A stretch of 64,000 nucleotides of DNA from Chloroflexota bacterium (GTDB lineage: Bacteria > Chloroflexota > Anaerolineae > UBA2200), in assembly GCA_014360755.1 (NCBI GenBank), contig JACIWX010000006.1, positions 27,748-91,747 of the forward strand. The letters are read 5' to 3'. Under the pieces are notes generated by a model that was not told where the DNA came from, ran no database searches, and saw only the letters and a list, made by a program, of their open reading frames with translations. This document shows, piece after piece, positions 6,191 through 45,829 of the stretch. The translations under genes were made by a program, and so were the position numbers. Each line of letters opens with the position of its first letter. Position 1 is the stretch's first letter.

Positions 6191-6257
6191 GGAGGGAACC
6201 TGTCTCAGCTACGAGGAGATTCTTCGTCGCTTCGCTCCTCAGAATGACAAGGAGAGG

Positions 6258-9549: not shown

Positions 9550-9560
9550 AATGCTTGATC

Positions 9561-20881: not shown

Positions 20882-21137
20882 TGGATCACCCACCTCCTTG
20901 TATTCAATCTGTGCTGATGTGCAGTGCAGAACTACCCCGATTCTGAGCGAATCATTGCATTTGTAGGCAAAATTATAATTCGGCTCTATTCCAATGTCAA
21001 ATGCAGAGGCTCTTGTTTGAATCGCAATCCATTTGACGAAATTTGAAAGATAAATATAATGAGTTCGAAGGAGATATGAAAGAAAAGTGTGCAAATGGCC
21101 GTGTCTGGGCAGTGTGGTTTCATAAGGAGGTTTGCGG

Positions 21138-24044: not shown

Positions 24045-24054
24045 AAGGAGAGAC

Positions 24055-25287: not shown

Positions 25288-25300
25288 CAGAGGAGGGAAC

Positions 25301-30276: not shown

Positions 30277-30297
30277 GAGAGCACAATTTAGCAAAGT

Positions 30298-30365
30298 GCG
30301 CACTATAAACGGGTTAGTCGTGAGCGCTAAAGCGCTCACGACGCACCAAAATACGCACTATAAAC
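30298..30365. repeat. Structured intergenic element: a 12-bp-stem hairpin flanked by direct repeats of CGCACTATAAAC.
   Basis: gcgcactataaac GGG ttagtcgtgagcgct-aaa-agcgctcacgac gcaccaaaata cgcactataaac. The hairpin is not followed by a U-tract. Confidence 0.5.
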
Positions 30366-30423
30366 AGGATGCATCAGGCGAGGAGAAATTTCTATTCGAC
30401 AGCCTTGCCATCCAGTAGTAAAA

Positions 30424-31770: not shown

Positions 31771-31785
31771 GGCGTCTGGAAAATG

Positions 31786-31852
31786 AAACCAGTGCCTGAG
31801 GGTACCTTCTCAGGCACTGGTTTCACATCTCTGATGAGCGCGAAAGCGCTCA
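31786..31852. terminator. Bidirectional terminator region between the convergent hflX and dehydrogenase genes, with two hairpins.
   Basis: A 16-bp stem GAAACCAGTGCCTGAG...CTCAGGCACTGGTTTC, then TGAGCGC-gaaa-GCGCTCA, followed by a TTTTT tract that overlaps the minus-strand gene stop. Confidence 0.5.
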
Positions 31853-31866
31853 CTACTAGTCCCTTT

Positions 31867-33003
31867 TTACTTCGTGTTTGCTCTTACCTGTTCGGCAATG
31901 GCATCTCCGACTTGATAGGTCAGCGCATTTCCGCCGAGGTCATACGTTCTGGGACCGTACTGCAACACTTGCTCCACAGCTTGCTCTATTGCCTGCGCAG
32001 CATCTACCTCACCGAGGTGTTCCATCATCATCGCTCCAGCAAGGACAGCAGCCATGGGATTGGCTTTCTGCTGGCCCTTATAGCGCGGCGCTGAGCCGTG
32101 GATGGGCTCGAACATCGAGAGGCCCTCCGGATTGATATTGGCGCCCGGAGCCAAGCCCATTCCTCCCTGAATGGCTGCCCCCAAGTCCGTAATAATATCC
32201 CCGAACAAGTTTGGCGCCACGACGACCTGGTAGTGCTCCGGCCTGCGGATAAACCACATAGTAACAGCATCTACCAGGTTGTACTCATATTCGATGTCAG
32301 GATAATCCCGGGCAACGCGTTCAAAGCATTCGCGCCAAAACTCGTAAATATCAGGCATGGCATTCACTTTATCTACCCCTGTAACGCGTTTCAGCCCCTT
32401 ACGGCGTGCGAGCTCGAATGCGTAGCGAATAACGCGTTCGCAACCCCGTCGGCTCAGCACTCCGATCTGATAAGCCAGCTCCTCCTGGGGCTCAACTCTC
32501 ACCGATACATCGAAATATGCGGAGTACAGCCTACGATGCATCGCACCATGTATGGTGGCTTCGCCCTCGCGAACCCGCCCGCCTACGCCACTATAGAGAT
32601 CCTCAGTGTTTTCACGCACGACATAGAAATTGATATCCGCCGCCGTCTTGTCTCTCAGCGGGGTATCCGCACCACGCAACAGTTTCACCGGGCGTAGGTT
32701 GACGTACTGGTCAAAATAGGTACGGAGCTTTAACACGATGCCGCCCAATGTCACGCGCTCTGAGACGCGAGGATCACCCAGCGCTCCCAGAAGGATAGCA
32801 TCCGTTTCCGCAATGCGACGCAGAGCCTCGTCGTCCACGACCTTGCCAGTCGCCAAATAGTGCTCCGCACCGAAGGGAAACTCGATCCACTCGCAACGAA
32901 AATCAAAGACTCGCCCCGTTGCTTCGAGAACTTTTTTCGCTTCCGCAATCACTTCTGGGCCAATGCCATCACCCGGAATCACGCTAATCGTATAATGTCG
33001 CAT
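31867..33003 (-). CDS. Isocitrate/isopropylmalate dehydrogenase-family enzyme (tartrate / D-malate dehydrogenase-like).
   Basis: N-terminal ISVIPGDGIGPEV and the central NLFGDIITDL motif. Confidence 0.85.
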   Translation of the reverse strand: MRHYTISVIPGDGIGPEVIAEAKKVLEATGRVFDFRCEWIEFPFGAEHYLATGKVVDDEALRRIAETDAILLGALGDPRVSERVTLGGIVLKLRTYFDQYVNLRPVKLLRGADTPLRDKTAADINFYVVRENTEDLYSGVGGRVREGEATIHGAMHRRLYSAYFDVSVRVEPQEELAYQIGVLSRRGCERVIRYAFELARRKGLKRVTGVDKVNAMPDIYEFWRECFERVARDYPDIEYEYNLVDAVTMWFIRRPEHYQVVVAPNLFGDIITDLGAAIQGGMGLAPGANINPEGLSMFEPIHGSAPRYKGQQKANPMAAVLAGAMMMEHLGEVDAAQAIEQAVEQVLQYGPRTYDLGGNALTYQVGDAIAEQVRANTK

Positions 33004-33011
33004 ACCGCCGC

Positions 33012-34274
33012 TTACTCCTTATCAGTTTTCTGATAACGCTGTGCAGCACGCCGCAGTGCCTCTACCACGGGCAGTTCTTGCCCGGACAGAAAGCGCACCA
33101 TGCCGCCTCCCGAGGTACAGACGTACCCCATGCGCTCCAATACACCGAACTTTGCCCCAGCAGCGACACTATCTCCGCCACCGATTACTGAGTATCCAGG
33201 TGCATCGGCAATCGCTTTCCATAACTTTTCAGTCCCTACTGCGCTCAAAGGATCCTCATAGATGCCGGCTGGCCCGTTCACGAAAATAGTGGCGGCTTGC
33301 TGTATCACTGTGATATAACGAGCGATAGTCTGTTGCCCGATATCCACAATAAGGCGCTCTGTAGGCAAATCCTCCAATCCAATTTCTTTTCGCCCTTGAT
33401 CATCTATCGCCACATCTATGGGGTAGAGGATCTTGTCCCCATAGCGCTGGAGGAGCTGTTGTGCCCTCGCGACAAAGGGAGTCAGCCCTTTTTCATGGAT
33501 GATACGCTCCGTCGGCTCTCCCAGCGCATACCCTTTAGCCAGAAGCATCACTTCGCCATTCAGTCCCGAGGTCAAGACATAATCCGCGGTGCCCTCACTC
33601 AGAACCTGTTCCATCATGCTAAAGGCATCAGCAATGCGCGCCCCACCCAAGACATACACGCAAGGATGCTTCGGGTTCTCCTTCACGCGCACAAGGGCGC
33701 CAAATTCCTCGATAAAGAGCCGCCCGCCTGCCGAAGGCAACACCTCCGCAAAGCCAACTAACGATGGTGTATAACGATGAGCAGCAGCAAACGCTTCGCA
33801 CACGTAATAGTCTGCCAGCGGAGCCAAGTTGCGCACCAACCAGGTCTTGGCAAGTTGCTCCGGGGTCAATTTCACAAATTGAACGAAGGTGGATACTTCT
33901 TCAGTCAGATAACGAACATTGTTCAAGAGCAGTAAATCCCCTGCTCGTAGTTCTTTCACTCGCTGCAAAGCCGCTGGCCCTACGATGTCGTCAATGAATG
34001 CCACAGGCCGGCCGAGCAATTCCGCAAGGCGCTGGGCATGAATCTCCAAGGGAATGAGATTGTGATAATCCTCGATATCCCCTTGATGAGCAAGCATCAC
34101 TACGCGTGCCCCTGCTTCCGACAATTCCTTAATCGTGGGCAGGCTTTTGCGAATGCGGTTGTCATTAGCCAAACGACCCGTCTTGTGGTCAATAGGAGAA
34201 TTGATGTCCACGCGCAGGATAACGGTCTTGTCATGGAAATCAAAATCATCTAATGTGAGGATCCCAGCTTCCAC
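33012..34274 (-). CDS. pgk: Phosphoglycerate kinase, archaeal-type sequence.
   Basis: LTLDDFDFHDKTVILRVDINSPID...ARVVMLAHQG resembles archaeal PGK N-termini rather than the bacterial VRVDFNVP type. 420 aa. Confidence 0.85.
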   Translation of the reverse strand: MEAGILTLDDFDFHDKTVILRVDINSPIDHKTGRLANDNRIRKSLPTIKELSEAGARVVMLAHQGDIEDYHNLIPLEIHAQRLAELLGRPVAFIDDIVGPAALQRVKELRAGDLLLLNNVRYLTEEVSTFVQFVKLTPEQLAKTWLVRNLAPLADYYVCEAFAAAHRYTPSLVGFAEVLPSAGGRLFIEEFGALVRVKENPKHPCVYVLGGARIADAFSMMEQVLSEGTADYVLTSGLNGEVMLLAKGYALGEPTERIIHEKGLTPFVARAQQLLQRYGDKILYPIDVAIDDQGRKEIGLEDLPTERLIVDIGQQTIARYITVIQQAATIFVNGPAGIYEDPLSAVGTEKLWKAIADAPGYSVIGGGDSVAAGAKFGVLERMGYVCTSGGGMVRFLSGQELPVVEALRRAAQRYQKTDKE

Positions 34275-34295
34275 AACACTCCTCCCAAGAAGAAC

Positions 34296-35324
34296 TTAGC
34301 GTCCCGGTTTGAGCCCTAGGTATTTGTTCGTTAGTCCCACAGCCTCCAAACGGTCGGTCTGCATGACCATGCAAGCCCGCACGCCATCAATGGTTTCTGG
34401 AATGGTTACTGCCTCTTGAGGGATGTTGATAGCAAACATCACATCATTACCGGAAAAACCAATACATTCTTCCCACACCGCAATTTCGTACATATCGCTG
34501 CGCTTGTTGCCCAAGTGCCGCGCATATTGGAAAAGGGCTGTATTCGAAGTAAAGCCATCAGCGAGACGGACAACGCGGATGCGCGGATGTTCCCGGAACG
34601 TTTCCAGCAAAGCCTCTTTGCTCACGGTTTTCTTCGGTGTGGCTACGATATTGATGATATGTCCATGGGTAACCGGGGTGTGCACCAAAAGGCCAGTGGC
34701 TTGTACATGGGGCATAATATGCATCAGGTCTACTGCCTGGTGGCTCGGTACTGCATCTGGCCGAAGCAAGTCTACATAGCCACGGTGAGTATCCCCGGGA
34801 TCAGCCACGCGGCGGATAATGGTAATGGCTATCTTCTCCACACCCACCATACGATCCAAAGCATCTACGGCGCGAATCAGGCCGGTGGTATTGCAGGAAG
34901 TAAGTTTCAAAAACCTCTGGCCGATGCCTTTTTCATAGTTTGCATATCCATGGAAGAAGACATCGGCAACCTCATCTTTTTCGCCACCTTGGAAAATCGC
35001 CTTTACTCCGTGCTTGAGGTATAGTTCCTTATTCTTGATGCCTATTCCGCCTGGTGCCGCATCCAGGACGACGTCTACCTGATCCAGCAACTCTTCGAAA
35101 GTGCCCGAGACAGGGATCCCGAGGGCATCAAACTCGGGCTTGCGTTTGGCATCCACGAGGAAAAGGCGGTAGGGCATACCGCTCTCGTAAAGAGCGCGAA
35201 TAGGCAGCGTGGGAGCGACATCGGCGACTCCTACCAATTCCATATCTTCCTGTCGCGCCACGCCATCCGCTAGACGCGTACCAATCGTGCCATAACCTGC
35301 TACTGCAACTCTGACCTTACTCAT
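34296..35324 (-). CDS. gap: Type II (archaeal-type) glyceraldehyde-3-phosphate dehydrogenase.
   Basis: VAVAGYGTIGTRLADGV, IFQGGEK and the active-site SCNTTGL match archaeal GAPDH. GGAGG SD with 8-nt spacing. Confidence 0.85.
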   Translation of the reverse strand: MSKVRVAVAGYGTIGTRLADGVARQEDMELVGVADVAPTLPIRALYESGMPYRLFLVDAKRKPEFDALGIPVSGTFEELLDQVDVVLDAAPGGIGIKNKELYLKHGVKAIFQGGEKDEVADVFFHGYANYEKGIGQRFLKLTSCNTTGLIRAVDALDRMVGVEKIAITIIRRVADPGDTHRGYVDLLRPDAVPSHQAVDLMHIMPHVQATGLLVHTPVTHGHIINIVATPKKTVSKEALLETFREHPRIRVVRLADGFTSNTALFQYARHLGNKRSDMYEIAVWEECIGFSGNDVMFAINIPQEAVTIPETIDGVRACMVMQTDRLEAVGLTNKYLGLKPGR

Positions 35325-35384
35325 CTGATAACCTCCTTTGCAACTATTCTGTCTTGAATCTACCACCTTACATTGAAGGCAATG

Positions 35385-36200
35385 CTACAATGAGCGGAAA
35401 TAGCCGATAGCCAACTCCGCAGCAGTCTGGCTATCAGGCCAAGGAAGGATTTCGGCACTGATATAGCTTGCATAGCTTATTTTGCGTAATGCTGTCACTA
35501 CCTCTTGGAAATTGATGTGACCCTGCCCTGGTGCGCGACGATTGCTATCCACCAGATGTACATAACCAAGACGTTTCCCCGCCAGTTCCAGCGCTTTGGG
35601 CAGGGACACTTCTTCGATATTCATGTGGAAAGTATCTGCCAACACAACCACGTTGTCCAGACCCACTTCATCTGCAAATGCCAGTGCTTCAGCAACAGTG
35701 TTCAGAAAATTGGTCTCGTAGCGGTTGATTGGTTCAATCGCCACACGCACCCCAACGGACTGGGCATATTCGGCGTAGCTACGGACTGCCTCCAGAGCCC
35801 ACTTGCGCTGTTCAGCCTGCACAGCAGGTTCCTTGCTGAGCACCCCTCGCACCCCACCAATGATCAGAAATCCCTGCCAAGGAGCCAGAAAATCGAGGAG
35901 GCGTTTCATCCTTTCGCGCAGCCTTGCGTGCACCGCGGGGTCAGTGTTAGCCAGGGACAAGCCATCTGTGTAGTAGGATTGCCCCGTAGCCACGGCTGAT
36001 AGTGCCAAACCTTTTTGGCGTAAGGCGCTGGCAATATGCCCCAAGAGGTCTTTCGACGGATCGAGCAAGCTCAGTTCTACCGCATCATATCCCAACTTAG
36101 CCGCTTGCTCTACGCCCAATTCCCAATTACCGGCAAAAAGCAATGGGGCAAAATTGGCTGGCAGTGGGGAAATGGCCATGCTGGTTTTGAACATCCTCAT
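35385..36200 (-). CDS. Sugar-phosphate isomerase/epimerase (xylose-isomerase-like TIM barrel).
   Basis: AP-endonuclease-2 / xylose-isomerase-like fold pattern (GYDAVELS...HLVDSN). Its ATG overlaps the upstream stop as ATGA. Confidence 0.8.
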   Translation of the reverse strand: MRMFKTSMAISPLPANFAPLLFAGNWELGVEQAAKLGYDAVELSLLDPSKDLLGHIASALRQKGLALSAVATGQSYYTDGLSLANTDPAVHARLRERMKRLLDFLAPWQGFLIIGGVRGVLSKEPAVQAEQRKWALEAVRSYAEYAQSVGVRVAIEPINRYETNFLNTVAEALAFADEVGLDNVVVLADTFHMNIEEVSLPKALELAGKRLGYVHLVDSNRRAPGQGHINFQEVVTALRKISYASYISAEILPWPDSQTAAELAIGYFRSL

Positions 36201-37156
36201 CTCCTCAGCAAACGAGCTGCCTTCTCCAAGACATAATGGGCTGCTTCCGCGATATGCTGCGGCGACATACCGTACTTGTGCAATAGTTCTGCATTTGTGC
36301 CACACTCACCATAGCAATCGCAGAGCCCAACGCGTATCATGGAGGTAGGCGCATGCTCTACGAGGACTTCTGCTACCGCGCTTCCCAAGCCGCCATATAT
36401 GTTGTGATTTTCTGCGGTAACAATGCCTCTGGTCTCCTTAGCTGCCTGTATCACCGCTTCTATATCAATAGGCTTGATCGTGGGCATATGGAGCACGCGG
36501 GTGCTGATTCCTTCTCTTCCAAGAAGCTGCGCGGCCTCCACACACTGCGAGGTCATCATGCCACTGCCAATGAGGGTTACATCTGAGCCTTCTCGCACTT
36601 TCACCGCTCTTCCCAATTTGAACTGATAACCCTCAGGCGATACACGAGGCCAGACATCCCGCGTTGCGCGCAGATAGACTGGCCCAGGATAAGCGACAAT
36701 CGCCCGCACCGCCTGCTCCATCTCGATGTCATCCGCGGGGTCTACCACAGCCATATGAGGGATTGCACGCATGATCCCCACATCTTCAACCGCTTGGTGT
36801 GTAGCACCATTATTGCCGCTGACAATACCGCTGTAAGCTCCGATGATTTTCACATTCAGCCGGCAATGGGCAACAGAGATAGCCACTTGATCACAGGCAC
36901 GCCGTGAAGCAAAGACACCAAAAGTGCTGACAAAGGGGATTTTCCCCATCAAAGCCATGCCTGCAGCCACTCCCATCATATTCTGTTCGGCAACTCCCAT
37001 TTGGAAAAAGCGCTCTGGAAATTCTTGAGCAAAGTATACCACGCGAGTAGAACTGGCCAAATCCGCATCCAACACGACAATGTTAGGATTTTGCCGTGCC
37101 AATTCTACCAGCGTGCGACCTAACGCTTCTCGTGCTGATTCTACCATGACTGACAC
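36197..37156 (-). CDS. Transketolase, C-terminal (pyrimidine-binding) subunit of a split enzyme.
   Basis: The 319-aa ORF aligns to the Pyr and C-terminal domains of transketolase (GVAEQNMMGVAAGMAL...). Confidence 0.9.
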   Translation of the reverse strand: MSVMVESAREALGRTLVELARQNPNIVVLDADLASSTRVVYFAQEFPERFFQMGVAEQNMMGVAAGMALMGKIPFVSTFGVFASRRACDQVAISVAHCRLNVKIIGAYSGIVSGNNGATHQAVEDVGIMRAIPHMAVVDPADDIEMEQAVRAIVAYPGPVYLRATRDVWPRVSPEGYQFKLGRAVKVREGSDVTLIGSGMMTSQCVEAAQLLGREGISTRVLHMPTIKPIDIEAVIQAAKETRGIVTAENHNIYGGLGSAVAEVLVEHAPTSMIRVGLCDCYGECGTNAELLHKYGMSPQHIAEAAHYVLEKAARLLRR

Positions 37157-37159
37157 TCC

Positions 37160-37999
37160 TTACTCTTGAGAACATCCCAATTCAGCGAGCGCTTGGGCTA
37201 GTTGTTCCTGATTGGGAGCCTTGCCATGCCATGCTGATTGGCCTTCCATGTACGAGACTCCCTTGCCTTTGACTGTATGAGCGATAACAATGTGGGGCTG
37301 GCCTTTCACTTCTTTTATTGTTTCCAGGGTAGTAATGAGCTGCCGCATATCGTGTCCGTTGACCTCTGCTACTGCCCAATTGAAACTGCGCCACTTGTCC
37401 GCAATGGGCGCTATCTCCATCACTTCTCTCAGGGGACCCATCAACTGCACGCCGTTGTAGTCCAAGATAACAGTGAGGTTATCTACCTTATAATGCGCAG
37501 CAGCTTCAGCGGCTTCCCAAATTTGCCCTTCTTGGTTTTCGCCATCGCCGATGAGACAATAGACATGAATCCCCTTGCCATCCAGACGCGCTGCCAATGC
37601 CATGCCCAAGGCTACCGACAAGCCTTGCCCCAGGGCACCTGTAGAGACTTCTACTCCCGGTACCAGATGCATATCTGGGTGCACTTGCAAACGGCTGTCA
37701 ATGCGGCCAAATGTCTTGAGCCAGTCGATAGGGAAAAAGCCGCGCTCTGCTAGTGTAGCGTAGAGGCCTGCCGCACCATGGCCCTTTGACAGTACAAAAC
37801 GATCCCTTTCTTCCCACTGCGGGCGCTGAGGGTCTATCTTCATAATATGAAAATATAATGCCGTGAGAATATCCGCTTCCGATAGCGAGCCACCTGGGTG
37901 GCCCACTCCTGCCTCGGAAATGGTACGCACAACGTGACAGCGGATCCTACGTGCGGTCTCTTCCAAATAACGGATTCGTTCTTCTGTAAGCAAAGTCAT
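37160..37999 (-). CDS. Transketolase, N-terminal (TPP-binding) subunit of a split enzyme.
   Basis: SEAGVGHPGGSLS, GDGENQEG and ILDYNGVQ are transketolase TPP-domain motifs. The gene lies 4 nt upstream of the C-terminal subunit. Confidence 0.9.
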   Translation of the reverse strand: MTLLTEERIRYLEETARRIRCHVVRTISEAGVGHPGGSLSEADILTALYFHIMKIDPQRPQWEERDRFVLSKGHGAAGLYATLAERGFFPIDWLKTFGRIDSRLQVHPDMHLVPGVEVSTGALGQGLSVALGMALAARLDGKGIHVYCLIGDGENQEGQIWEAAEAAAHYKVDNLTVILDYNGVQLMGPLREVMEIAPIADKWRSFNWAVAEVNGHDMRQLITTLETIKEVKGQPHIVIAHTVKGKGVSYMEGQSAWHGKAPNQEQLAQALAELGCSQE

Positions 38000-38084
38000 T
38001 GTGATACTTTTCCCCTTCCAGAATTGAGGGCATTGGGGGTTTCCCCCAATGCCCTCATATGCCATTGAAGGTTACCCGAGAAAA

Positions 38085-39116
38085 CTACAGGCCAAGACGG
38101 CTGGCGTAGTCCATGATATTGCTCTTGTCCACCACCGTCGCCTGCGTCACGATCCGCTCCGGCACCGGCTTCCCATTGATGTAGTCAATCAGCGCCAAGA
38201 TCGCATCACCAGCCTGCTTCCCTGGCCGCTGATCACACGATACCACCATCCGCCCTTCGTAAATCGCCTTCAGCGCATCGTTGTTGGCATCAAACCCACT
38301 CACCAACGTCTTGCTCAATCGCCCAGCCGCCTCCAACGCCTCGATCGCACCCAACGCCATCTCGTCGTTGCACGCCAATACCGCATCAATCTCCGGATAC
38401 GTCTGCAGCAAGTTCTCCATCACCTGCATGCCCTTCGCACGCTGGAAGTCAGCCGTCTGCGATGCCAATACCTGGATGCCTGGATACTTCGCCAATACGT
38501 CATCTATCGCCTTCTTGCGGTCTATCGCCGTCTGCGAACCTGTGGCTCCCTCCAGGATCACCACCTTCCCCTTGCCACCCAGCTTCTGCACCATGTACTC
38601 CGCTACCAACGTCATCGCTTCATAGTTCTCTATGGCCGAGAAGGTGATCACCTTGCCACCAAAAGCCTTCGTGTTCGCCGTGGCTACGGGAATGCCCGCC
38701 TGATTCGCTCGCTCAATCACCGGCACAATGCCCGCCGAATCCACCGGCACCAAGACTATGCCATCTACTTTCCGCGCAATCAGGTCATCCACCAACCGCG
38801 TCTGCTCTTCCAGGTTGTTCGGCTTCGTCGGCGCTAAGTAAATCAACTCAATGCCATGCTCCTCAGCAACCTGCTTGGCACCCGCATACATCATATCCCA
38901 GAAGGGGTTGTTCAGCGCCTTCGTGACCAGAGCAAAGGTCAGCTTCTTTGGCGCTGCCGTGGGCGCAGGCGGAGCTGTCGGCTTCGCCGCTTCCGTCGGC
39001 TTGGGTGTTGGTGTAGGCACAGGCGTGGGCGTGGCTGCTGGTTGACAGGCTGACAAGCCAATGCCTACCGCCAGCAATATTGCGATCAGCAAGTAACTAC
39101 GGTTGTTCTTGTACAT
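38085..39116 (-). CDS. Sugar ABC transporter substrate-binding lipoprotein (ribose/monosaccharide-binding family).
   Basis: Lipobox LSAC, a Pro/Thr-rich linker (TPTPVPTPTPKPTEAAKPTAPPAPTAAPKK), then a periplasmic binding protein type I fold. Confidence 0.85.
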   Translation of the reverse strand: MYKNNRSYLLIAILLAVGIGLSACQPAATPTPVPTPTPKPTEAAKPTAPPAPTAAPKKLTFALVTKALNNPFWDMMYAGAKQVAEEHGIELIYLAPTKPNNLEEQTRLVDDLIARKVDGIVLVPVDSAGIVPVIERANQAGIPVATANTKAFGGKVITFSAIENYEAMTLVAEYMVQKLGGKGKVVILEGATGSQTAIDRKKAIDDVLAKYPGIQVLASQTADFQRAKGMQVMENLLQTYPEIDAVLACNDEMALGAIEALEAAGRLSKTLVSGFDANNDALKAIYEGRMVVSCDQRPGKQAGDAILALIDYINGKPVPERIVTQATVVDKSNIMDYASRLGL

Positions 39117-39233
39117 ATTTCCCTTTCCTCCTCCTTTTCAAATTACAAATTTGGGCACAGAAACTCGAAAAGTGAACCGCTTGGTTTATGGATTCTCACC
39201 CCCTTTCGAAGAATTTTGCGGCTATCTATCGCT

Positions 39234-40172
39234 TCATGCCGTCTTCTTCTTGATCCACATATCCAGCCAAACTGCCAACACAACCACTAAGCCAATGGCA
39301 AATTGCTGCCAAAGTGAGGAAATCCGCAACAGATTCATGGCATTCACCAGAACTGTCATGATCAACGTGCCGATAATCGTGCCTCCGATTCCACCACGTC
39401 CCCCCGTCATGCTCGTGCCACCCATCACGGGGCTTGCAATAGCAGGGAGCAGGAAGGGAGCCCCAATATCCTGGTCTACAGCATTGAGCCGCGCCGTCAA
39501 GATAATCCCACCTAATGCAGCTAACAACCCGCTGAGCATATAGGTGTAAATCAAAATACGATCCACGCGCAAGCCTGAAGCTTTGGCAGCATAGGGATTC
39601 GCCCCTACCGCGTAGATGCTCTTGCCCAGCGTGGTGTACTTCAAGAAGAGATAAACCACCAGTGCTACAGCGACCATGATCCATATCGGCACAGGAATGC
39701 CCAACAAGATTCCGCGCCCGATATAGCGGAATGCATTGGGGAAGCCAAAATAGGGAAAAGCACCCATGATCGCAAAAGCAAGGCCTCGACCTACCCAGAG
39801 CATGCCATATGTGGCAATGGCGGAAGGCAATTTGACTTTGGCAACCAGAATGCCGCTGACCAAACCACAGAGCAATCCGGAACCCAACGCGGATACAATC
39901 GCAATTGACCAATGCAGCTTCGTCTGGGTAAGCACATAACCTGCAATGATGCTCGCCAGCGTCACAACTGAACCTATGGAAAGGTCTATGCCACCTGTCA
40001 GCAGCACGATCGTCATGCCTGCCGAGATAATGATTTGAGGCGAAGCCTGGCGCACGATATTGATGAGGTTGCTGATTTTCAGAAAGTTCGGGTTGAGCAC
40101 AGCGACAACCATGCTCAACAGCACCAGCGCTAGCAATCGTGAAAACCTAAGCAAAAAAGATTTTAATGTCAT
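39234..40172 (-). CDS. Sugar ABC transporter permease (RbsC/AraH-like).
   Basis: 312-aa polytopic protein with branched-chain / ribose-type permease topology. Confidence 0.85.
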   Translation of the reverse strand: MTLKSFLLRFSRLLALVLLSMVVAVLNPNFLKISNLINIVRQASPQIIISAGMTIVLLTGGIDLSIGSVVTLASIIAGYVLTQTKLHWSIAIVSALGSGLLCGLVSGILVAKVKLPSAIATYGMLWVGRGLAFAIMGAFPYFGFPNAFRYIGRGILLGIPVPIWIMVAVALVVYLFLKYTTLGKSIYAVGANPYAAKASGLRVDRILIYTYMLSGLLAALGGIILTARLNAVDQDIGAPFLLPAIASPVMGGTSMTGGRGGIGGTIIGTLIMTVLVNAMNLLRISSLWQQFAIGLVVVLAVWLDMWIKKKTA

Positions 40173-40200
40173 TTCCTGCCATCTCCTCCATGATCTTGCG

Positions 40201-41157
40201 CTATTTCTGCGCTCCGCCTTCTACCAGGACAGACAAGACAATGGCGCCGATCAGTACGGGGCCAATAATAGCCAGCTGGATGTAGGTCGGTATGCCCATC
40301 ACATTCAGCCCATTTCTTAGGATGAGGATAAACAAGACGCCAATCACCGTTCCAATAGCTGTGCCACGCCCCGCGGCGAAACTCCCGCCCAAAACAACGG
40401 CAGAAAAAGCTTCGAACTCCATGCCTAAACCGACGGTTGGCTGAGCACACATATTGCGCCCTGTGATCACGATAGCTGCCAGGCCTGCCATGAGGCCGGC
40501 ATAGACATACACTAGAGTCTTATACCACCAGGCTGGCTTGCCAGTGAGCACGAGCGCTTGTTCGTTGCCACCCAAGGCATAGACATAGACGCCAAAAGGT
40601 GTAAAGTTCAGCAAGGTGAAAGAGCATAGAAAAGCCAGGACAGATAACCACATGGGCACTGGCAAATGCAGAAATGTGCCGTTGCCCAGGTACCCTATGG
40701 ACGCAGGCAATCCCCAAATCACATTCCCGTTGTTCATTCCCAGAGAAATCCCTGCCGCGATGCCCTGTGTGCCCAGAGTAGCAATAAAAGAAGGGATGTC
40801 CATCTTGGTAACAAAGAAGCCATTCAACAAACCACACAAGCCCCCCACGATGAGGCTGAGCAGCAAGGCTACCGGGATAGGCAGCTTGGCATAAGCCAGA
40901 GCCCAAGCCATCACCATACCCGCCAGGGTCATCACGGCACCGACCGAAAGCTCAATGCCACCAGTGATCTTGACTACGATGACGCCCATGCACAGGATCA
41001 TCAAGATGGAACCTTGCGTCAGGAGATTGACAGCATTCTTCAGGGTGAAGAAAGCTGGGGCAAAGCGAGCAAAGAACAGGATCATGCCCAGCAATACCCA
41101 CACTACTGTTGGGACTTGACGAAGGAGTGTTTTCCGTGAACCTGGACTCATTTGCAT
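40201..41157 (-). CDS. Sugar ABC transporter permease (second subunit).
   Basis: 318-aa polytopic paralogue of the adjacent permease. Confidence 0.85.
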   Translation of the reverse strand: MQMSPGSRKTLLRQVPTVVWVLLGMILFFARFAPAFFTLKNAVNLLTQGSILMILCMGVIVVKITGGIELSVGAVMTLAGMVMAWALAYAKLPIPVALLLSLIVGGLCGLLNGFFVTKMDIPSFIATLGTQGIAAGISLGMNNGNVIWGLPASIGYLGNGTFLHLPVPMWLSVLAFLCSFTLLNFTPFGVYVYALGGNEQALVLTGKPAWWYKTLVYVYAGLMAGLAAIVITGRNMCAQPTVGLGMEFEAFSAVVLGGSFAAGRGTAIGTVIGVLFILILRNGLNVMGIPTYIQLAIIGPVLIGAIVLSVLVEGGAQK

Positions 41158-42668
41158 GCTTTCGCTCCCATAGCACAGCGGATAATCTCTTCGGCATCTG
41201 TACCGCGTGGGAACTCGCCCACGATAGAGCCCTCATGCATCACATAAATGCGGTCGCTCATCCCCAAAATTTCTGGCAACTCCGAGGAGATCATCAAAAT
41301 CGCGTTTCCCTCGTTAGCCAGTTGATCCATAAAAGCGTGGATTTCCGCTTTAGCGCCCACATCAATGCCACGAGTTGGCTCATCAAAGATAAAGATTTTA
41401 GGCCCAGTACAAAGCCACTTAGCCACCACTACTTTCTGCTGGTTGCCTCCGCTCAGATACTGTACCTCACGAGCCAAGTCAGGTGGAGAGACTCGCAGTT
41501 GCTTTACGTATTTCCCTGCTTCCAGTTGCTCCTTCTTGGGGTTCAAAATGCCACGAGGGAACAACTGCTTCAAGCTCGCCATCACGACGTTGGTTTGCAG
41601 CGGGAGGATGGGAAAAATCCCATCGCGTTTGCGATCCTCGGGCAACAATCCGATACCCATCTCCACGGCGCGCGGTGGATCAATATGGTCTACTTTCTTC
41701 CCCATAACCTCGATGGTGCCGGCAGTGCGAGGATCCAAGCCAAAGATAGCGCGTGCCGTTTCCGTGCGACCAGAACCAACCAAGCCAGCCAGGCCAACGA
41801 TCTCTCCAAAACGCACTTCGAAAGAGACATCGCGCAATTTGTCATGGGTACAAAGGCCTTGAACGCGCAAGGCCACCTCACCTGGCTGGCAATAGCGGCG
41901 TGGGAAGAGGTCTTTGATCTCCCGACCTACCATCATCTTGATCACTTCATCCGCATTGGTCTCCGCAACTCGCCGCGTGCCAATGCGCTGACCATCGCGC
42001 AAGACGGTTACCCGATCTCCGATAATGAACAACTCTTCCAAGCGATGGGAGATGTAGATGATGCCCACGCCGCGGGCTTTTAGCCGACGGATGGTTTCGA
42101 AAAGCTGCTCGATCTCACGAACGGTGAGGGCAGAGGTTGGCTCATCCAGCACCAGGATGCGCGCTTCCTGGGAAAGGGCTTTGGCGATTTCCACCATCTG
42201 TTGCTGGGCGACTCCCAGCTCCATCACCGGAAGGCGCGTGTCTATGGGTACGCCCATGGACTCCATCAGGCTGTGAGCTTCCTGATGCATGACTCGCTTG
42301 TCCAGAAAGAACCCAGCGCGCGTTTTCTCACGCCCCAAAAAGATGTTCTCGGCAACGTTACGGTACGGGACCAGCGTAAATTCCTGGTATACCATAGCAA
42401 TGCCATGTGCCTTCGCTAGGGCCGGATTCCAATGTGCCTGTACCTCGCCATCAATGACGATTTCCCCGGCATCCCGTTCGTAGGCACCAGCGAGAATCTT
42501 CATCAGGGTAGACTTTCCAGCGCCATTCTCACCGACCAGTACATGCACCTCACCCGGGTACAAGTCCAGGTCTACCTTATCCAGGGCCTGAACCCCTGGG
42601 AATGCTTTGCTGATGCCTCGCATTTCCAGCAGCGGTCTATCCTTTGCCAGCACAGATCCTCCTACCAT
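41148..42668 (-). CDS. Sugar ABC transporter ATP-binding protein with duplicated ABC domains (RbsA-like).
   Basis: Two Walker A motifs (GENGAGKST; first domain) and two LSGG signatures in 506 aa. Confidence 0.9.
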   Translation of the reverse strand: MVGGSVLAKDRPLLEMRGISKAFPGVQALDKVDLDLYPGEVHVLVGENGAGKSTLMKILAGAYERDAGEIVIDGEVQAHWNPALAKAHGIAMVYQEFTLVPYRNVAENIFLGREKTRAGFFLDKRVMHQEAHSLMESMGVPIDTRLPVMELGVAQQQMVEIAKALSQEARILVLDEPTSALTVREIEQLFETIRRLKARGVGIIYISHRLEELFIIGDRVTVLRDGQRIGTRRVAETNADEVIKMMVGREIKDLFPRRYCQPGEVALRVQGLCTHDKLRDVSFEVRFGEIVGLAGLVGSGRTETARAIFGLDPRTAGTIEVMGKKVDHIDPPRAVEMGIGLLPEDRKRDGIFPILPLQTNVVMASLKQLFPRGILNPKKEQLEAGKYVKQLRVSPPDLAREVQYLSGGNQQKVVVAKWLCTGPKIFIFDEPTRGIDVGAKAEIHAFMDQLANEGNAILMISSELPEILGMSDRIYVMHEGSIVGEFPRGTDAEEIIRCAMGAKACK

Positions 42669-42711
42669 GAGTTTATGTTTACATAACGATTTCTAACCCT
42701 AGTGGCGCGCC

Positions 42712-43869
42712 CTACATTTGGAAGACCACTTTGAGCGCATCCTCTTCAAACGACTTGTCAATCGCTTGCTGCGCCTGATCCAACGTAAAGCGGTGCGTGA
42801 TCAGCTTTTCGAAGGGAAATTCGTGGCGATGGCGGTACATCATTTCCATAGCAACGTAGTAGCCATCGTGGGGGTGGTTGGTATTGCCAAAGAGCAGGAC
42901 ATTCTTGGCAGCGATATGGCGGTGCACATTCAGGGTTACGGTGTTGCCGGTGTCCACAAAGTTGCCCGTTTCCAAATATGTACCGCCACGGCGTAACATC
43001 TCCAAACCTACTTTGAGCACCTCAGGACGCCCCACGTTCTCCACGACTACGTCTGCGCCACGTCCTTCCGTCTCATCGCGAATGATTTGTACCAATTCTT
43101 TGTCAGAGAGTCCTTTGACATTGATGCCCATGTCGGCGCCAAACTGCTTGGACAACTCTAGTTTCATATCGCTCTCATCGAGGGCGATGATCTTGCCCGC
43201 GCCGAGCAGGCGTGCCTTCGCCACCATCATCATACCCACTGCACCCACGCCTTGGACCACCACCGTATCCCCAAAATGGAAGCCTTTGCCTGCGTACGCG
43301 GCATATTCCTTCGCGCGGTCCAGCAGCGCGGTTACGACAAAGAGTTCGGTGAGGCAAGCGTATTCCACGGACAGGTATTCCGGCACTTTGTATACCCACG
43401 CTTTGGGGGGCAAATACATGTACTCAGCCCAACCACCGACAATATACGGAAATTGGTCAGAGCGATAGGTCATGCCTATGCCCTGGTGTTTCGCGCAGTA
43501 TGGATAACCGTGCACGTGGCGGCAATACCAGCATTCGCCGCAGATCACGTTGGGGCAGTTCGTGACTCGATCGCCGACTTTTAAATCCTTGCCGCTGTAC
43601 TCGATCTCCGAACCTTTGCCGTTCATCTCCACCACAATGCCGGCGTTCTCGTGGCCATGCACGCAGGGAAACACCATGTCCTGCTCTGCTTCTGTACCCC
43701 CGTAAAGGGTCAATTCTCCCTTATAGGCATGCTTGTCTGTGCCACAAATGCCGGACATTTCCATCTTGACAATGACTGCTCCTGGCTCCAGGTGATCAGG
43801 GTAGGGCAGTTCCTGCACCTCGATTTTCCCAGGTGCTACCATCACGGCTGCTTTTACTTTCTCTGGCAT
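42712..43869 (-). CDS. Zn-dependent medium-chain alcohol/polyol dehydrogenase (threonine/sorbitol dehydrogenase family).
   Basis: Catalytic Zn motif GHENAG, structural Zn site CGECWYCRHVHGYPYC, and the Rossmann motif VQGVGAVG. Confidence 0.85.
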   Translation of the reverse strand: MPEKVKAAVMVAPGKIEVQELPYPDHLEPGAVIVKMEMSGICGTDKHAYKGELTLYGGTEAEQDMVFPCVHGHENAGIVVEMNGKGSEIEYSGKDLKVGDRVTNCPNVICGECWYCRHVHGYPYCAKHQGIGMTYRSDQFPYIVGGWAEYMYLPPKAWVYKVPEYLSVEYACLTELFVVTALLDRAKEYAAYAGKGFHFGDTVVVQGVGAVGMMMVAKARLLGAGKIIALDESDMKLELSKQFGADMGINVKGLSDKELVQIIRDETEGRGADVVVENVGRPEVLKVGLEMLRRGGTYLETGNFVDTGNTVTLNVHRHIAAKNVLLFGNTNHPHDGYYVAMEMMYRHRHEFPFEKLITHRFTLDQAQQAIDKSFEEDALKVVFQM

Positions 43870-43926
43870 GTTTTTCTCCTATGTCCGAAAAGTAGTGTGA
43901 TCATGCAGCGCTCTAAGTAGTGCCTA

Positions 43927-44856
43927 TCATGGCGGGTAGGCAACTGTGTATAGGTGTTTGCCACCCTTTGTGGGCCCCTTCAGCAGTGCCTCAATTTCTT
44001 CCGGAGAGCGCTGGGTCAGTTTCTCAGCGGGCGGCAGCACCCCGGCCGGGTAACGTGCCATGATGTCATTGATCAACTTCTCCAGGTAGTCCAAGATGGC
44101 ATAAAGCCCCGGCTTTGCCTTGTCCATGTCTGCCAGCGTGGCACAGCCTACCACGCCTTCGGGCGTAGCAATGACCTCGATCGTGGAAGCGCCGACATGC
44201 TGCCAGAAGGGGATGGGGAGATCGTACGCTGAGCCGGACATGTCAATGTGCCCAGGGGGCATGAGGCTTTCACCCTTGGTGTCTACGGCGTCCTCCATCT
44301 TGATCATTTCAGGGAACAAGGCTAGCGAGTAGGAAGTTTCGCATTCATCGGCATGGATAAAAGGAGTTTCAAAAGGCCCACCGTGTTTCTTGTCGCGGAT
44401 GTGCGGCTTGATGGTGAACCACCAGTTCACGTTGATCAGCAATGCCGGCACCTGATACTTTTTCGCCCACTGATGCATGGCTACGGGAATCGCATAATCC
44501 TGGCCATGACCATTCAGCAGGATCTGCTTGCGGAAACCGGTATTCCAAAGGCCGGCGATGACCGCACGCAAGTAGGCAATAAAAGTCTCTTCGGGGACGA
44601 CAATGGTACCCGGCATCCCTAAGTGGTGGAAAGGATGGGAGCCGTACCAAAGAGGTTGTGCTACCGTACAACCTGTCTTTTGCGCGACCAGTTCCGCCAT
44701 ACGGGTAACAAGAAAGGTATCTTCGCCTGAGCAGGCATGGGGTCCATGGTTTTCCGTGCTGCCAATGGGCACGATGATCAAATCATTTTTCTTCAGCCGC
44801 TCTTCGATCTCCTTGCCGGTCATATTCTGCAGGTAGATACCGGTTGCCCGATCCAT
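43927..44856 (-). CDS. Creatininase-family amidohydrolase.
   Basis: IVPIGSTENHGPH...and the HADECE motif are typical of the creatinine amidohydrolase family. Confidence 0.8.
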   Translation of the reverse strand: MDRATGIYLQNMTGKEIEERLKKNDLIIVPIGSTENHGPHACSGEDTFLVTRMAELVAQKTGCTVAQPLWYGSHPFHHLGMPGTIVVPEETFIAYLRAVIAGLWNTGFRKQILLNGHGQDYAIPVAMHQWAKKYQVPALLINVNWWFTIKPHIRDKKHGGPFETPFIHADECETSYSLALFPEMIKMEDAVDTKGESLMPPGHIDMSGSAYDLPIPFWQHVGASTIEVIATPEGVVGCATLADMDKAKPGLYAILDYLEKLINDIMARYPAGVLPPAEKLTQRSPEEIEALLKGPTKGGKHLYTVAYPP

Positions 44857-44936
44857 GTGCCCACCTTCTGGTGGGAGCTTCCATTTTTCCATTGCTTCGA
44901 TGCTCCTTTCTTATCCTTTTGTGTTGATGCCATTAT

Positions 44937-45611
44937 TTAATCCTCAGGCAAATCGAGGAATTGCAACAATCGCTCTTTGACAGCGTGGATATGTTCTGCC
45001 ATGCGCCGACTGGCTAACTCAGCATCTCGCTGGAGCAGGGCTTCCACGACGCGACGGTGCTCCTCTGCCGAAGCCCGCACGTTTTCCATAGAGCGCAGCG
45101 ACAGCACGCGCTCGCGGTGGATGAGCTCTTGAACGCTCTCCATCATCTTGATGAGCCAATAATTTTGGGCGTGTTCGATGAGAAATGAGTGCAAATCAAT
45201 CTCGGTTTGGAGGAATGCATCGAGGTCTCCACGCTCGGTAGCAGCAGCGTTTTCCTCATAAAGACGCTTCAAGCGGGCTAATTCGTCATCCGTGAGCGCG
45301 AAGGCAGCTTTTTTTACCGCATGGCTCTCCAAGAGTTCACGCAGTTCGAACAGCTCTTCCAAATCGCGTTTGGTGATTTCTGTGACAAAAAAACCAACGC
45401 GAGGCACTATGCGCAACAGACCGTCTCGTTCCAGTCTGAGCAATGCCTCGCGTATGGGAGTGCGGCTGATATTGAGCTGTTCAGCCAGTTCATCAATATG
45501 CAACTGGGCTCCGGGATCTATCTTGAGGGTGAGGATACTGTCTTTGATGACCCCGTATGCCCAATCCGTCAATGCTGCTGGTTTACCTCTTTGGACAGGA
45601 AGCTCAACCAT
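44937..45611 (-). CDS. GntR-family transcriptional regulator (FadR/FCD subfamily).
   Basis: Winged HTH (LHIDELAEQLNISRTPIREALLRLERDGLL) and an FCD-type C-terminal domain. Confidence 0.85.
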   Translation of the reverse strand: MVELPVQRGKPAALTDWAYGVIKDSILTLKIDPGAQLHIDELAEQLNISRTPIREALLRLERDGLLRIVPRVGFFVTEITKRDLEELFELRELLESHAVKKAAFALTDDELARLKRLYEENAAATERGDLDAFLQTEIDLHSFLIEHAQNYWLIKMMESVQELIHRERVLSLRSMENVRASAEEHRRVVEALLQRDAELASRRMAEHIHAVKERLLQFLDLPED

Positions 45612-45623
45612 CGAATTTTCCTT

Positions 45624-45656
45624 GTGATATATTATATACTATATATAGTATATCAC
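45624..45656. promoter_or_regulatory. Palindromic operator in the divergent GntR / ptsI promoter region.
   Basis: GTGATATAttaTATACTATATATAGTATAtatCAC contains a perfect 18-bp palindrome, TATACTATATATAGTATA, inside imperfect GTGATATA..TATATCAC arms. It lies 13-45 nt upstream of the GntR start codon. Confidence 0.5.
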
Positions 45657-45829
45657 ATACTCCCAAATTTGTCAAATTTTGGAGAACGCCAGGTAAGTTC
45701 TGTCTTGGGGCAAATATTATGAGGTAACGATCTGGCTGAATACTGGCAAGTTAACCAAAGCCAAATTTGGCATCACAGAGAACTTGGGCCATAATATGTG
45801 AAAATTCTATGTTCTATCGGAGTGAAGAC

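Follow-up and report, generated by a model that had tools for sequence, protein, structure and literature searches.

An operon from an Anaerolineae bacterium suggests a mobile transketolase, GAPDH and PGK module that may act on carboxylates in place of phosphates

The 64,000-nucleotide stretch of DNA analyzed here, hereafter the window, comes from a Chloroflexota bacterium (Anaerolineae, UBA2200; GenBank assembly GCA_014360755.1, contig JACIWX010000006.1, forward-strand positions 27,748 to 91,747). On its minus strand, 13 closely packed genes that span window positions 31867-45611 form an apparent catabolic operon, in which a split transketolase and paralogues of type II glyceraldehyde-3-phosphate dehydrogenase (GAPDH) and archaeal-type phosphoglycerate kinase (PGK) are encoded along with proteins that appear to import and open a cyclitol-type substrate. 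Comparison of gene neighborhoods and of the residues that set these paralogues apart suggests that the three enzymes may handle substrates with a carboxylate where the familiar ones carry a phosphate.

The genes were delineated by reading of the open reading frames (ORFs) and by a Pfam family check of each product, and the 13 agree in set, order and family with a preliminary description of this DNA. The first gene encodes a GntR-family regulator with an FCD effector domain (44937-45611; PF00392, 61 bits; PF07729, 92.6 bits), and is followed by the genes for an IolN-type beta-diketone ring-opening hydrolase with a creatininase fold (43927-44892; PF02633, 178.9 bits), a Zn-dependent, weakly IolM-like MDR dehydrogenase (42712-43869; ADH_N/ADH_zinc_N) and a CUT2-type ABC importer, which consists of an ATPase with two fused ABC domains (41148-42668; PF00005 in two stretches, 174 bits), two BPD_transp_2 permeases (40201-41157 and 39234-40172; PF02653, 121 and 122 bits, respectively) and an RbsB-like substrate-binding lipoprotein of the Peripla_BP_4 family (38085-39116; PF13407, 225 bits; lipobox ..GLSAC in the translation). 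Further downstream are the genes for the thiamine diphosphate (ThDP)-binding N subunit of the split transketolase (TK_N, 37160-38065; PF00456, 182.9 bits), its non-canonical Pyr/C subunit (TK_C, 36197-37156; Transket_pyr and Transketolase_C, 308.8 bits to the PDB structure 6yaj), an IolO-like keto-sugar-acid 3-epimerase of 269 aa with a xylose-isomerase-like TIM barrel (35385-36194; AP_endonuc_2), the type II (archaeal-type) GAPDH paralogue of 342 aa that belongs to a bacterial accessory clade (GAPDH2, 34296-35324; Gp_dh_C), the archaeal-type PGK paralogue of 420 aa, without Arg65 (33012-34274; PF00162, 341.8 bits), and a beta-decarboxylating dehydrogenase of 378 aa from the isopropylmalate/tartrate/D-malate dehydrogenase family (Iso_dh, 31867-33003; PF00180, 328 bits). 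On reading of the sequence, the start of the TIM-barrel gene was set to the ATG at 36194, five bases past the transketolase stop, in preference to a longer ORF, and that of GAPDH2 to the ATG at 35324, which gives the 342 aa common to all homologues.

The gaps between the genes range from an overlap up to 117 bp, with 8 bp between the PGK stop and the Iso_dh start. In a scan for sigma-70-type promoters, the sole strong site precedes the GntR gene (minus strand, 45638-45675: TTGACA-17-TATACT with an extended TG at 45675-45647, 11 of 12 consensus positions, and an overlapping 9/12 site at 45666-45638), and none comparable lies upstream of GAPDH2, both statements referring to consensus matches alone. 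The genes being contiguous behind this one promoter-like site, the earlier notion of a single catabolic operon with an odd enzyme set and no kinase stands: family annotation of the operon and of its flanks, hflX and ptsI, shows no kinase inside or beside it. The large ORFs annotated in the window include a single sugar kinase gene, for a ROK glucokinase on the opposite strand (17149-18108), and no second gap or pgk was found among those annotated across the rest of the window. The preliminary description had also envisaged an ordinary locus with a kinase and a canonical pentose pathway just outside, or GAPDH and PGK genes with a promoter of their own and no relation to the upstream genes; neither a kinase nor such a pathway adjoins the operon, and the GAPDH2-PGK pair shows no separate promoter-like site and is co-inherited with the transketolase and the epimerase elsewhere. 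Between the convergent Iso_dh and hflX genes, a perfect 16-bp inverted repeat (31785-31824; GAAACCAGTGCCTGAG-N8-CTCAGGCACTGGTTTC, then ATTTT) is a likely bidirectional terminator; a terminator scan with a T-run rule did not report this hairpin, the T-run of which is below the length set by the rule.

The creatininase-family protein passes the NCBIfam model for 3-dehydro-scyllo-inosose hydrolase, IolN (NF041098), with 545.3 bits against a cutoff of 245, and genuine creatininases in the PDB give only about 60 bits. The best NCBIfam match of the TIM barrel is IolO, 5-keto-L-gluconate epimerase (NF041099, 264 bits, under the cutoff of 300), compared with 145 bits to D-psicose 3-epimerase. Because the creatininase is IolN and the isomerase IolO-like, the front end of the operon is, on the evidence of these models, a Thermotoga-type inositol route and not a branched-pentose route, and the analogy to D-apiose catabolism through apulose 4-phosphate, proposed in the preliminary description, fails; an apulose kinase is missing as well, and an apiose-type pathway was rejected on these grounds. 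By analogy to Thermotoga, ABC import, the MDR dehydrogenase, which presumably makes the diketone for IolN, IolN itself and the IolO-like epimerase would lead to a 5-keto-hexonate of the 5-keto-L-gluconate or D-tagaturonate type. IolN, epimerase, MDR dehydrogenase, transketolase, GAPDH2 and PGK are likewise found together in a Gaiellales metagenome-assembled genome (MAG; locus L024), a Spirochaetaceae MAG (L048) and Dorea sp. D27 (L066), and an IolM-like MDR dehydrogenase (189-198 bits) adjoins IolN in the latter two. Epimerases of the window type, 60-63% identical, occur with the same transketolase subtype in two loci, L001 and L007, and with the GAPDH2-PGK pair in a third, L009. Among solved structures, the binding protein most resembles the ribose-binding protein 2ioy (212 bits), compared with 94 bits to the Caulobacter inositol-binding protein 4irx; the comparison with solved binding proteins did not settle its ligand.

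The transketolase, GAPDH2 and PGK all depart from their well-studied relatives at particular positions, which we counted in 25 GAPDH2-linked TK_C sequences, 83 GAPDH2 sequences and 73 members of the PGK clade. Where canonical enzymes have a His that binds phosphate (H416 in human, H461 in E. coli transketolase), the TK_C subunit from the window has Tyr, and its counterpart of the GEDG motif (human D424, yeast D477) reads GNNG. All 25 linked sequences have Tyr or Asp at position 416 and Asn or Thr at position 424; the split transketolase of C. hydrogenoformans (6yaj), which is biochemically ordinary, retains the His and the Asp of GEDG (H/E/D). The same His is among the residues replaced in E. 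coli TktA engineered for better cleavage of 5-keto-D-gluconate to tartaric semialdehyde (R358I/H461S/R520Q; PMC12016104).

In canonical PGK, Arg65, Arg122 and Arg170 bind the 3-phosphate of the substrate, His62 the bridging oxygen, and Asp23 and Asn25 the 2-hydroxyl (PMC7729029). In the clade under study, D23, N25, R38, H62 and R122 are invariant (73/73) and R170 is conserved in 72 of the 73 members, so that six of the seven checked ligand positions for 3-phosphoglycerate (3-PG) are kept. The exception is position 65, which is occupied by Asp in 47 members (including the window protein), Ser in 17 and Gly in 9, and by Arg or Lys in none; the complete "basic patch" for the 3-phosphate (His62, Arg65, Arg122 and Arg170) is accordingly found in none of the 73, Arg65 being lost throughout. 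The fold and the nucleotide-binding and catalytic residues are retained, namely, K215 (as K or R), E343, the GGG motif and, in 72 of 73 sequences, D374. Among 1.84 billion representatives, HQG[D/S] is confined to the handful closest to the window PGK, and nearly all of about 110 more distant archaeal-type PGK representatives have HQ[G/S]R/K. Thus, to judge from the residues, the substrate pockets of both the transketolase and the PGK appear to be altered where the phosphate sits. An assignment of the 420-aa and 378-aa proteins to a DUF1537 kinase/PdxA-type tetronate pathway was also tried and rejected: their Pfam matches are to a true PGK fold and an Iso_dh fold.

GAPDH2 retains Cys140, His219, Arg167, Arg168 and Asp171 (M. 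fervidus numbering), with the Cys and the His present in 83/83 sequences. Five residues that are invariant in three solved archaeal GAPDHs, Lys33, His194 (HHGPD motif), His221, His299 (AVHQE motif) and Arg270, are replaced: Lys33 by Asp, His194 by Gln and His299 by Pro in all 83 sequences, His221 by Ile in 82, and Arg270 by Asn or His in 72, with Arg in just 3. Lys33 reportedly determines the NADP preference of archaeal GAPDH, and with that role Asp33 would fit a catabolic, NAD+-dependent enzyme.

A scan for homologues with one genome per species found 558 stretches that encode relatives, and the distribution given here is that of the best 80 loci. These show 68-99% identity, with about 70% across phyla, and come from at least six phyla, Chloroflexota, Actinomycetota, Bacillota, Atribacterota, Spirochaetota and Planctomycetota, plus one Bathyarchaeia MAG. 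The carriers among the Bacillota include Acetobacterium woodii, A. wieringae, A. bakii, Clostridium magnum, Dorea sp. D27, Christensenella hongkongensis, Lachnospiraceae and Oscillospiraceae. Identity of about 70% across phyla indicates horizontal spread of an accessory function; the closest solved relatives are the P. horikoshii enzymes (GAPDH 2czc, 260 bits; PGK 2cun, 311 bits), and the window proteins are 45-50% identical in sequence to their solved homologues. In other Anaerolineae (L001 and L007), the transketolase, epimerase, GAPDH2 and PGK recur as a cassette with 61-84% identity. The clostridial and acetogenic carriers (Clostridium, Acetobacterium, Dorea) presumably have type I gap-pgk operons. 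The possibility that the pair is the housekeeping GAPDH and PGK was considered and, given its phyletic spread, gene context and residue changes, judged unlikely, with less confidence for the genome from which the window comes, of which the window alone was covered. In the Candidatus Bathyarchaeia MAG (L074), a GAPDH2 of the bacterial clade (69% identity) and an HQGD-type PGK are encoded on opposite strands, with aldehyde:ferredoxin-oxidoreductase-like genes on either side; this genome could represent the donor lineage or a binning artefact.

The gene neighborhood was quantified in 50 loci with enough flanking sequence, using tblastn with the window proteins and with representatives of the commonest neighbor clusters. 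In 48 of these, PGK is the gene immediately after GAPDH2. A LarA-family gene (Mar type) is found near GAPDH2 in 29 loci, a malic enzyme and a split transketolase in 18 each, an acetoin-dehydrogenase-like E1/E2/E3 set in 9, and an Iso_dh gene in 8; a malate racemase, malic enzyme or tartrate dehydrogenase (TDH)-family gene adjoins the pair in 38 of the 50 loci, and none of them does in the other 12. Scores of 406 bits to Mar2 (6d6z) and about 215 bits to lactate racemases identify the neighboring LarA as a malate racemase, and that of L001 passes the curated malate-racemase model (NF052593, 504.6 bits, cutoff 500). The Iso_dh neighbors of GAPDH2 are members of the TIGR02089 family (tartrate dehydrogenase/D-malic enzyme), and those in L030 and L050 score at or above its cutoff. 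The racemase accompanies the malic enzyme in 17 of 18 loci and Iso_dh in none of eight (Fisher p = 5.8e-6); the close Anaerolineae relatives L001, L007, L008 and L009 have the racemase, and the window has Iso_dh in its stead. Malic enzyme is L-specific and hence needs a racemase, whereas a D-specific decarboxylating dehydrogenase does not. This difference would account for the either-or linkage, which is the pattern expected if the product of the pathway is a (2R)-hydroxy-dicarboxylate, such as D-malate. No gene of the aldehyde dehydrogenase (ALDH) family was recognized in the operons examined, so that GAPDH2 is the sole candidate seen for aldehyde oxidation.

A different arrangement is found in Acetobacterium and some other genomes, where the E1/E2/E3 set lies directly upstream of the pair and replaces the transketolase. 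Acetoin-dehydrogenase-like E1, E2 and E3 genes precede GAPDH2-PGK in five Acetobacterium spp. loci (L041, L054, L056, L058 and L083) and in L030 and L033. The five Acetobacterium loci also contain a gene for a metallo-beta-lactamase-fold protein, malic enzyme and malate racemase genes after the pair, and, nearby, genes for 2Fe-2S and FAD-binding subunits; in L030 and L033, the pair is followed by Iso_dh, not by malic enzyme and racemase. These loci suggest a second ThDP-dependent source of the C4 aldehyde-acid, perhaps with a 6-deoxy or methyl-ketol substrate. The window itself encodes, on the strand opposite to the operon and at a distance of about 5 kb, a 2-oxoacid/acetoin-type complex (21951-26689, plus strand: a fused E1 alpha-beta of 697 aa with E1_dh, Transket_pyr and Transketolase_C, an E2 of 423 aa and an E3 of 462 aa). 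In the Anaerolineae MAG represented by L001/L002 (4683-7106 and 12640-14740), the place of IolN and the MDR dehydrogenase before the cassette is taken by two Amidohydro_2 genes and a small cupin gene, the products of which all failed to match any NCBIfam model. A gene for a DMSO-reductase-family molybdoenzyme, called as two ORFs (512 and 178 aa) and possibly disrupted, separates PGK from the malate racemase in that MAG.

A self-contained example, from an isolate, is the locus of C. magnum DSM 2767 (L069), where the genes for substrate-binding protein, ABC ATPase, permease, malic enzyme, GAPDH2, PGK, TK_N, TK_C, an IolB-like protein, IolD, IolE, IolG and malate racemase follow one another in this order, with no unassigned gene in between. 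IolD (982 bits), IolE (430 bits) and IolG (483 bits) score above the cutoffs, and IolB is recognizable at 105 bits, under the cutoff; IolC, IolJ and IolA are not present in this cluster. The classical IolG/E/D/B steps yield 2-deoxy-5-keto-D-gluconate. By our own derivation, this compound, HOCH2-CO-CHOH-CHOH-CH2-COO-, has the 3S,4R configuration and is the carboxylate isostere of D-xylulose 5-phosphate. Its cleavage by the transketolase would give (R)-OHC-CHOH-CH2-COO-, that is, (R)-malate semialdehyde, an isostere of D-glyceraldehyde 3-phosphate, from which an oxidation with phosphorylation, followed by transfer of the phosphoryl group to ADP, would produce D-malate and ATP, and the racemase and malic enzyme would then generate pyruvate and CO2. 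In this proposed pathway, each gene of the operon has a step and none is left over.

The preliminary description held that the substrate of the window operon is not predictable from known pathways, which now seems too pessimistic: the comparative context points to a cyclitol-derived 5-keto-hexonate, with a C4 dicarboxylate as the end of the route. The explanation that we consider probable, given the gene contexts and residue changes, is that a C4 aldehyde-acid is released from such a 5-keto-hexonate by the transketolase, oxidized and phosphorylated by GAPDH2 and used by PGK to make ATP, and that the resulting dicarboxylate is decarboxylated. Specifically, a cyclitol-type substrate would be imported and degraded without being phosphorylated, and the non-canonical transketolase would move the HOCH2-CO- unit of the keto-acid to an aldehyde, the probable acceptor being a sugar phosphate, for instance glyceraldehyde 3-phosphate (G3P), and release OHC-CHOH-CH(X)-COO-, which is D-malate semialdehyde where X is H, the isostere mentioned above, and tartrate semialdehyde where X is OH. 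With NAD+ and phosphate, GAPDH2 would convert this aldehyde-acid to an acyl phosphate, and the PGK paralogue would use the acyl phosphate and ADP to form ATP and D-malate or tartrate. The Iso_dh-family enzyme would finally convert the (2R)-hydroxy-dicarboxylate to pyruvate, or to glycerate/hydroxypyruvate, and CO2, a step that malate racemase and L-malic enzyme would take over in many other genomes. Transketolase, GAPDH and PGK together would then amount to a kinase-free, ATP-yielding "carboxylate copy" of the conversion of D-xylulose 5-phosphate to G3P, 1,3-bisphosphoglycerate and 3-PG. The broader proposition, to which we would give even odds, is that these three genes constitute a mobile module present in at least six phyla, which cleaves cyclitol-derived 5-keto-hexonates in this manner and allows kinase-free, inositol-type fermentation with substrate-level phosphorylation via 4-phospho-D-malate or tartryl phosphate, and that the GAPDH and PGK labels of its members are wrong.

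In the window, the C4 acid would be tartrate, not malate, because the IolM/N/O route removes no hydroxyl, and this would fit with the closest solved relative of the window Iso_dh, the tartrate dehydrogenase/decarboxylase of P. putida (3flk, 261 bits, vs 234 bits to M. tuberculosis LeuB). L048, L066 and the closest relatives of the window use malate racemase, for which tartrate epimerization is merely a side activity (PMC11770544); because of this, a deoxy substrate that would give malate is possible for the window, too. In the curated models, the window Iso_dh scores 368 bits with TIGR02089 (cutoff 470) and 389.8 bits with the LeuB model NF002898 (cutoff 393). The score alone is indecisive, and that Iso_dh is a stray leuB is made unlikely by its 8-bp spacing after PGK and by TDH-family genes that are likewise placed in eight other loci. 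Compared with 3flk and M. tuberculosis LeuB, the window protein has an insertion of about 25 residues (residues ~147-172), which splits every profile match in two; the Iso_dh proteins encoded next to GAPDH2 in the four loci checked (L015, L028, L030 and L050) match the models in a single stretch.

Several observations weigh against the proposed route. The case for it is drawn wholly from gene context and residue patterns, and the changed residues of GAPDH2 are counted as sequence differences from the solved enzymes, without structural roles being given. The curated models still call the pair type II GAPDH (NF003251, 393.6 bits, cutoff 185) and PGK, and with the catalytic residues and most of the 3-PG ligands intact, residual or even primary activity on G3P and 3-PG is possible. 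At the front end, IolG, the GFO_IDH_MocA-family inositol 2-dehydrogenase, is absent from the operon and from the annotated ORFs of the window; the MDR dehydrogenase fails the model of IolM, scyllo-inosose 3-dehydrogenase (NF041097, 156.8 bits, cutoff 450), with a score no higher than its threonine dehydrogenase score; and the binding protein looks ribose-type rather than inositol-type. By our own derivation, the products of Thermotoga-type IolN and IolO (5-keto-L-gluconate as well as D-tagaturonate) are 4S, whereas canonical transketolase and GAPDH expect 4R/2R, a mismatch to which, speculatively, the altered GEDG motif might be relevant. At the other end of the pathway, the window Iso_dh is divergent, and its score with the LeuB model is nearly at the cutoff. 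Finally, on one Anaerolineae contig (L004/L005, 10001-11029), a GAPDH2 copy that is 79% identical to that of the window is solitary, without PGK. This copy carries every clade-specific substitution, and at a distance of 4-9 kb lies a divergent group of genes for GFO_IDH_MocA and AP_endonuc_2 proteins, a malate-racemase-type LarA and a GH4 protein.

The pair might alternatively consist of ordinary G3P and 3-PG enzymes of archaeal origin, co-transcribed with the catabolic genes to supply or drain the G3P of the transketolase. Such a local supply would be sensible if G3P is the acceptor, and the above-cutoff GAPDH and PGK model names, the retained catalytic Cys and His, the six kept 3-PG ligand positions and the solitary GAPDH2 all agree with it. 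We nevertheless regard this explanation as unlikely: the pair occurs in Clostridium, Acetobacterium and Dorea, which we take to have type I gap-pgk operons already, the operons examined encode neither a kinase nor a phosphorylated intermediate, Arg65 of PGK and the phosphate-binding His of the transketolase are lost in all members (73/73 and 25/25, respectively), and Asp33 favors NAD+-linked catabolism over the archaeal gluconeogenic role. It would also leave unexplained the stereochemically patterned tie of the pair to malate racemase and malic enzyme or to a D-malate/tartrate dehydrogenase. Of the two roles that the preliminary description had offered for GAPDH and PGK, the supply or drainage of G3P is therefore the less favored one, and action on a non-canonical aldehyde is favored, with the amendment that the aldehyde would be an aldehyde-carboxylate, not an aldehyde-phosphate.

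The lost PGK ligand and the changed GAPDH motifs, in themselves, say merely that the substrate does not carry the usual phosphate, so the pair might act on some other non-phosphorylated analogue, such as free D-glyceraldehyde (with glycerate and ATP as products), tartronate semialdehyde or sulfolactaldehyde. The 12 loci without malate racemase, malic enzyme and Iso_dh and the aldehyde:ferredoxin-oxidoreductase-like neighbors of the pair in L013, L016, L017 and L074 leave some room for this. We consider it quite improbable, however, given that the conservation of Arg122 and Arg170 implies an anionic tail, that 38 of the 50 loci have the malate- or tartrate-related genes by the pair, and that no sulfonate-related gene was seen among the annotated neighbors, which cover the commonest neighbor clusters only.

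Both reactions are reversible, and archaeal GAPDH and PGK work in gluconeogenesis; a malyl-phosphate pathway of this type has also been constructed synthetically. The pair could thus work reductively, with the PGK-like enzyme activating a carboxylate (uronate, aldarate, malate or tartrate) at the expense of ATP and the GAPDH-like enzyme reducing the acyl phosphate to an aldehyde that serves as the acceptor for the transketolase. This direction appears very improbable in a setting of import, ring cleavage and decarboxylating dehydrogenases, which is catabolic; in addition, Asp33 suggests NAD+ rather than NADPH, an outlay of ATP and reductant would weigh heavily on fermentative anaerobes, and all the other genes of the C. 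magnum operon fit an oxidative order.

An apiose-like or other branched- or rare-pentose pathway built on the split transketolase, suggested by the co-occurrence of the latter with a TIM-barrel isomerase and a CUT2 ABC importer with a ribose-type binding protein, is hardly credible given the lack of an apulose or pentulose kinase, the IolN and IolO-like assignments, a transketolase without the phosphate-binding His required for a phosphorylated donor, and the IolG/E/D/B or IolN/IolO genes carried by the related loci with identifiable sugar-processing genes.

Some features of the window lie outside these questions. Divergent from the GntR gene, at a distance of about 150 bp, is ptsI (45767-47557, plus strand), which encodes enzyme I of the phosphotransferase system; no HPr or EII gene is among the annotated ORFs that neighbor it. 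From the first positions of the window onward, cumulative GC skew climbs steadily to a maximum at about 32 kb (window ~30000-32000) and then drops; the peak falls at the convergent hflX/Iso_dh junction and may reflect merely the switch of the coding strand. A 314-aa ORF (20642-21586, minus strand) has an IF-1/eIF-1a S1-like domain at residues 246-308 only, and is either called from an over-extended start or an IF-1 with a long N-terminal extension. Two plus-strand ORFs near glycosyltransferase and helicase genes (6189-7502, 437 aa, and 9555-11699, 714 aa) have no Pfam match at E<=1e-8 and no NCBIfam match at E<=1e-15.

In the full-text literature searched, in which few subscription journals are covered, we found no description of a natural phosphorylating route of this kind or of a role for the GAPDH2/PGK clade. 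The LarA family includes malate racemases, and in the supplementary table of Desguin et al. 2020, a "3-phosphoglycerate kinase" is listed by one LarA group and malic enzyme by another, without interpretation in that table. The study of inositol-to-butyrate conversion in Dysosmobacter describes a kinase/aldolase route and does not mention the transketolase-GAPDH2-PGK enzymes, and the authors of the man-made malyl-phosphate pathway state that there is no natural pathway to its product, 2,4-dihydroxybutyrate. If the proposed route is correct, it would represent a new substrate-level phosphorylation, two new specificities within two of the best-studied enzyme families, and a third ending for inositol catabolism, a C2+C4 transketolase split beside the Bacillus aldolase and the Thermotoga uronate routes. 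It would also explain why "PGK" and malic enzyme are so frequently encoded beside malate racemase, the largest group within LarA, and would correct the annotation of many "type II GAPDH" and "PGK" genes from Anaerolineae, from acetogens and from Firmicutes of the gut (Dorea, Christensenella, Lachnospiraceae and Oscillospiraceae), the fermentation of inositol by gut bacteria being of current health interest. The natural enzymes could then be used in engineered malate, tartrate or dihydroxybutyrate pathways, which now rely on designed malate kinases.

Among known systems, the front end of the window operon resembles the myo-inositol operon of Thermotoga maritima (TM0411-TM0416, with IolG, IolM, IolN and IolO; pathway intermediates in PMC5931981) in that an IolN above the cutoff, an IolO-like epimerase, an MDR dehydrogenase and a CUT2 importer are encoded in one operon. 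It differs from the latter in the lack of IolG and in an MDR dehydrogenase and an epimerase that score under the curated cutoffs. The downstream route of Thermotoga reportedly consists of UxaB, UxaA, KdgK and KdgA, none of which is encoded in the window operon or among the annotated ORFs of the window; unlike in Thermotoga, the downstream part consists of transketolase, GAPDH2, PGK and Iso_dh. With the Bacillus-type pathway (IolG-E-D-B-C-J-A), the likeness lies in the related loci, such as that of C. magnum, which join IolG, IolE, IolD and IolB to transketolase, GAPDH2 and PGK in one operon. These loci replace the IolC kinase, the IolJ aldolase and the malonate-semialdehyde dehydrogenase IolA by transketolase, GAPDH2, PGK, racemase and malic enzyme, and the proposed C2+C4 split, in contrast to the C3+C3 split of the Bacillus type, would gain ATP, not spend it.

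The segment from transketolase through GAPDH to PGK has the same three folds, reaction order and catalytic residues as its counterpart in the lower pentose-phosphate pathway and glycolysis, and differs in the replacement of the transketolase His by Tyr or Asp and of GEDG by GNNG and its variants, of Arg65 of PGK by Asp, Ser or Gly, and of Lys33 of GAPDH by Asp, as well as in the proposed substrates, which bear a carboxylate for the phosphate. D-apiose catabolism via an apulose-4-phosphate transketolase likewise has a sugar operon in which a split transketolase is encoded together with an ABC importer, and requires an isomerase, a kinase and a phosphorylated donor; the window operon lacks the kinase, and the phosphate site of its transketolase is altered. 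In L-carnitine catabolism of Acinetobacter baumannii, D-malic semialdehyde is converted to D-malate and then to pyruvate by a beta-decarboxylating D-malate dehydrogenase of the Iso_dh family (PMC11353897), that is, through the same C4 intermediates and last step as proposed here, although the aldehyde is oxidized by a non-phosphorylating ALDH, with no gain of ATP. In the proposed plant tartrate route and in the engineered Gluconobacter route, a transketolase cuts 5-keto-D-gluconate to tartaric semialdehyde, and the changes in the engineered TktA include H461S, the very His that is missing in the natural linked transketolases described here; unlike the route proposed for the window, those routes are biosynthetic or engineered, employ a non-phosphorylating semialdehyde dehydrogenase and have no PGK step. 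Each chemical step thus has a separate precedent; what would be new is inositol-type catabolism that is finished by neofunctionalized paralogues of transketolase, GAPDH and PGK.

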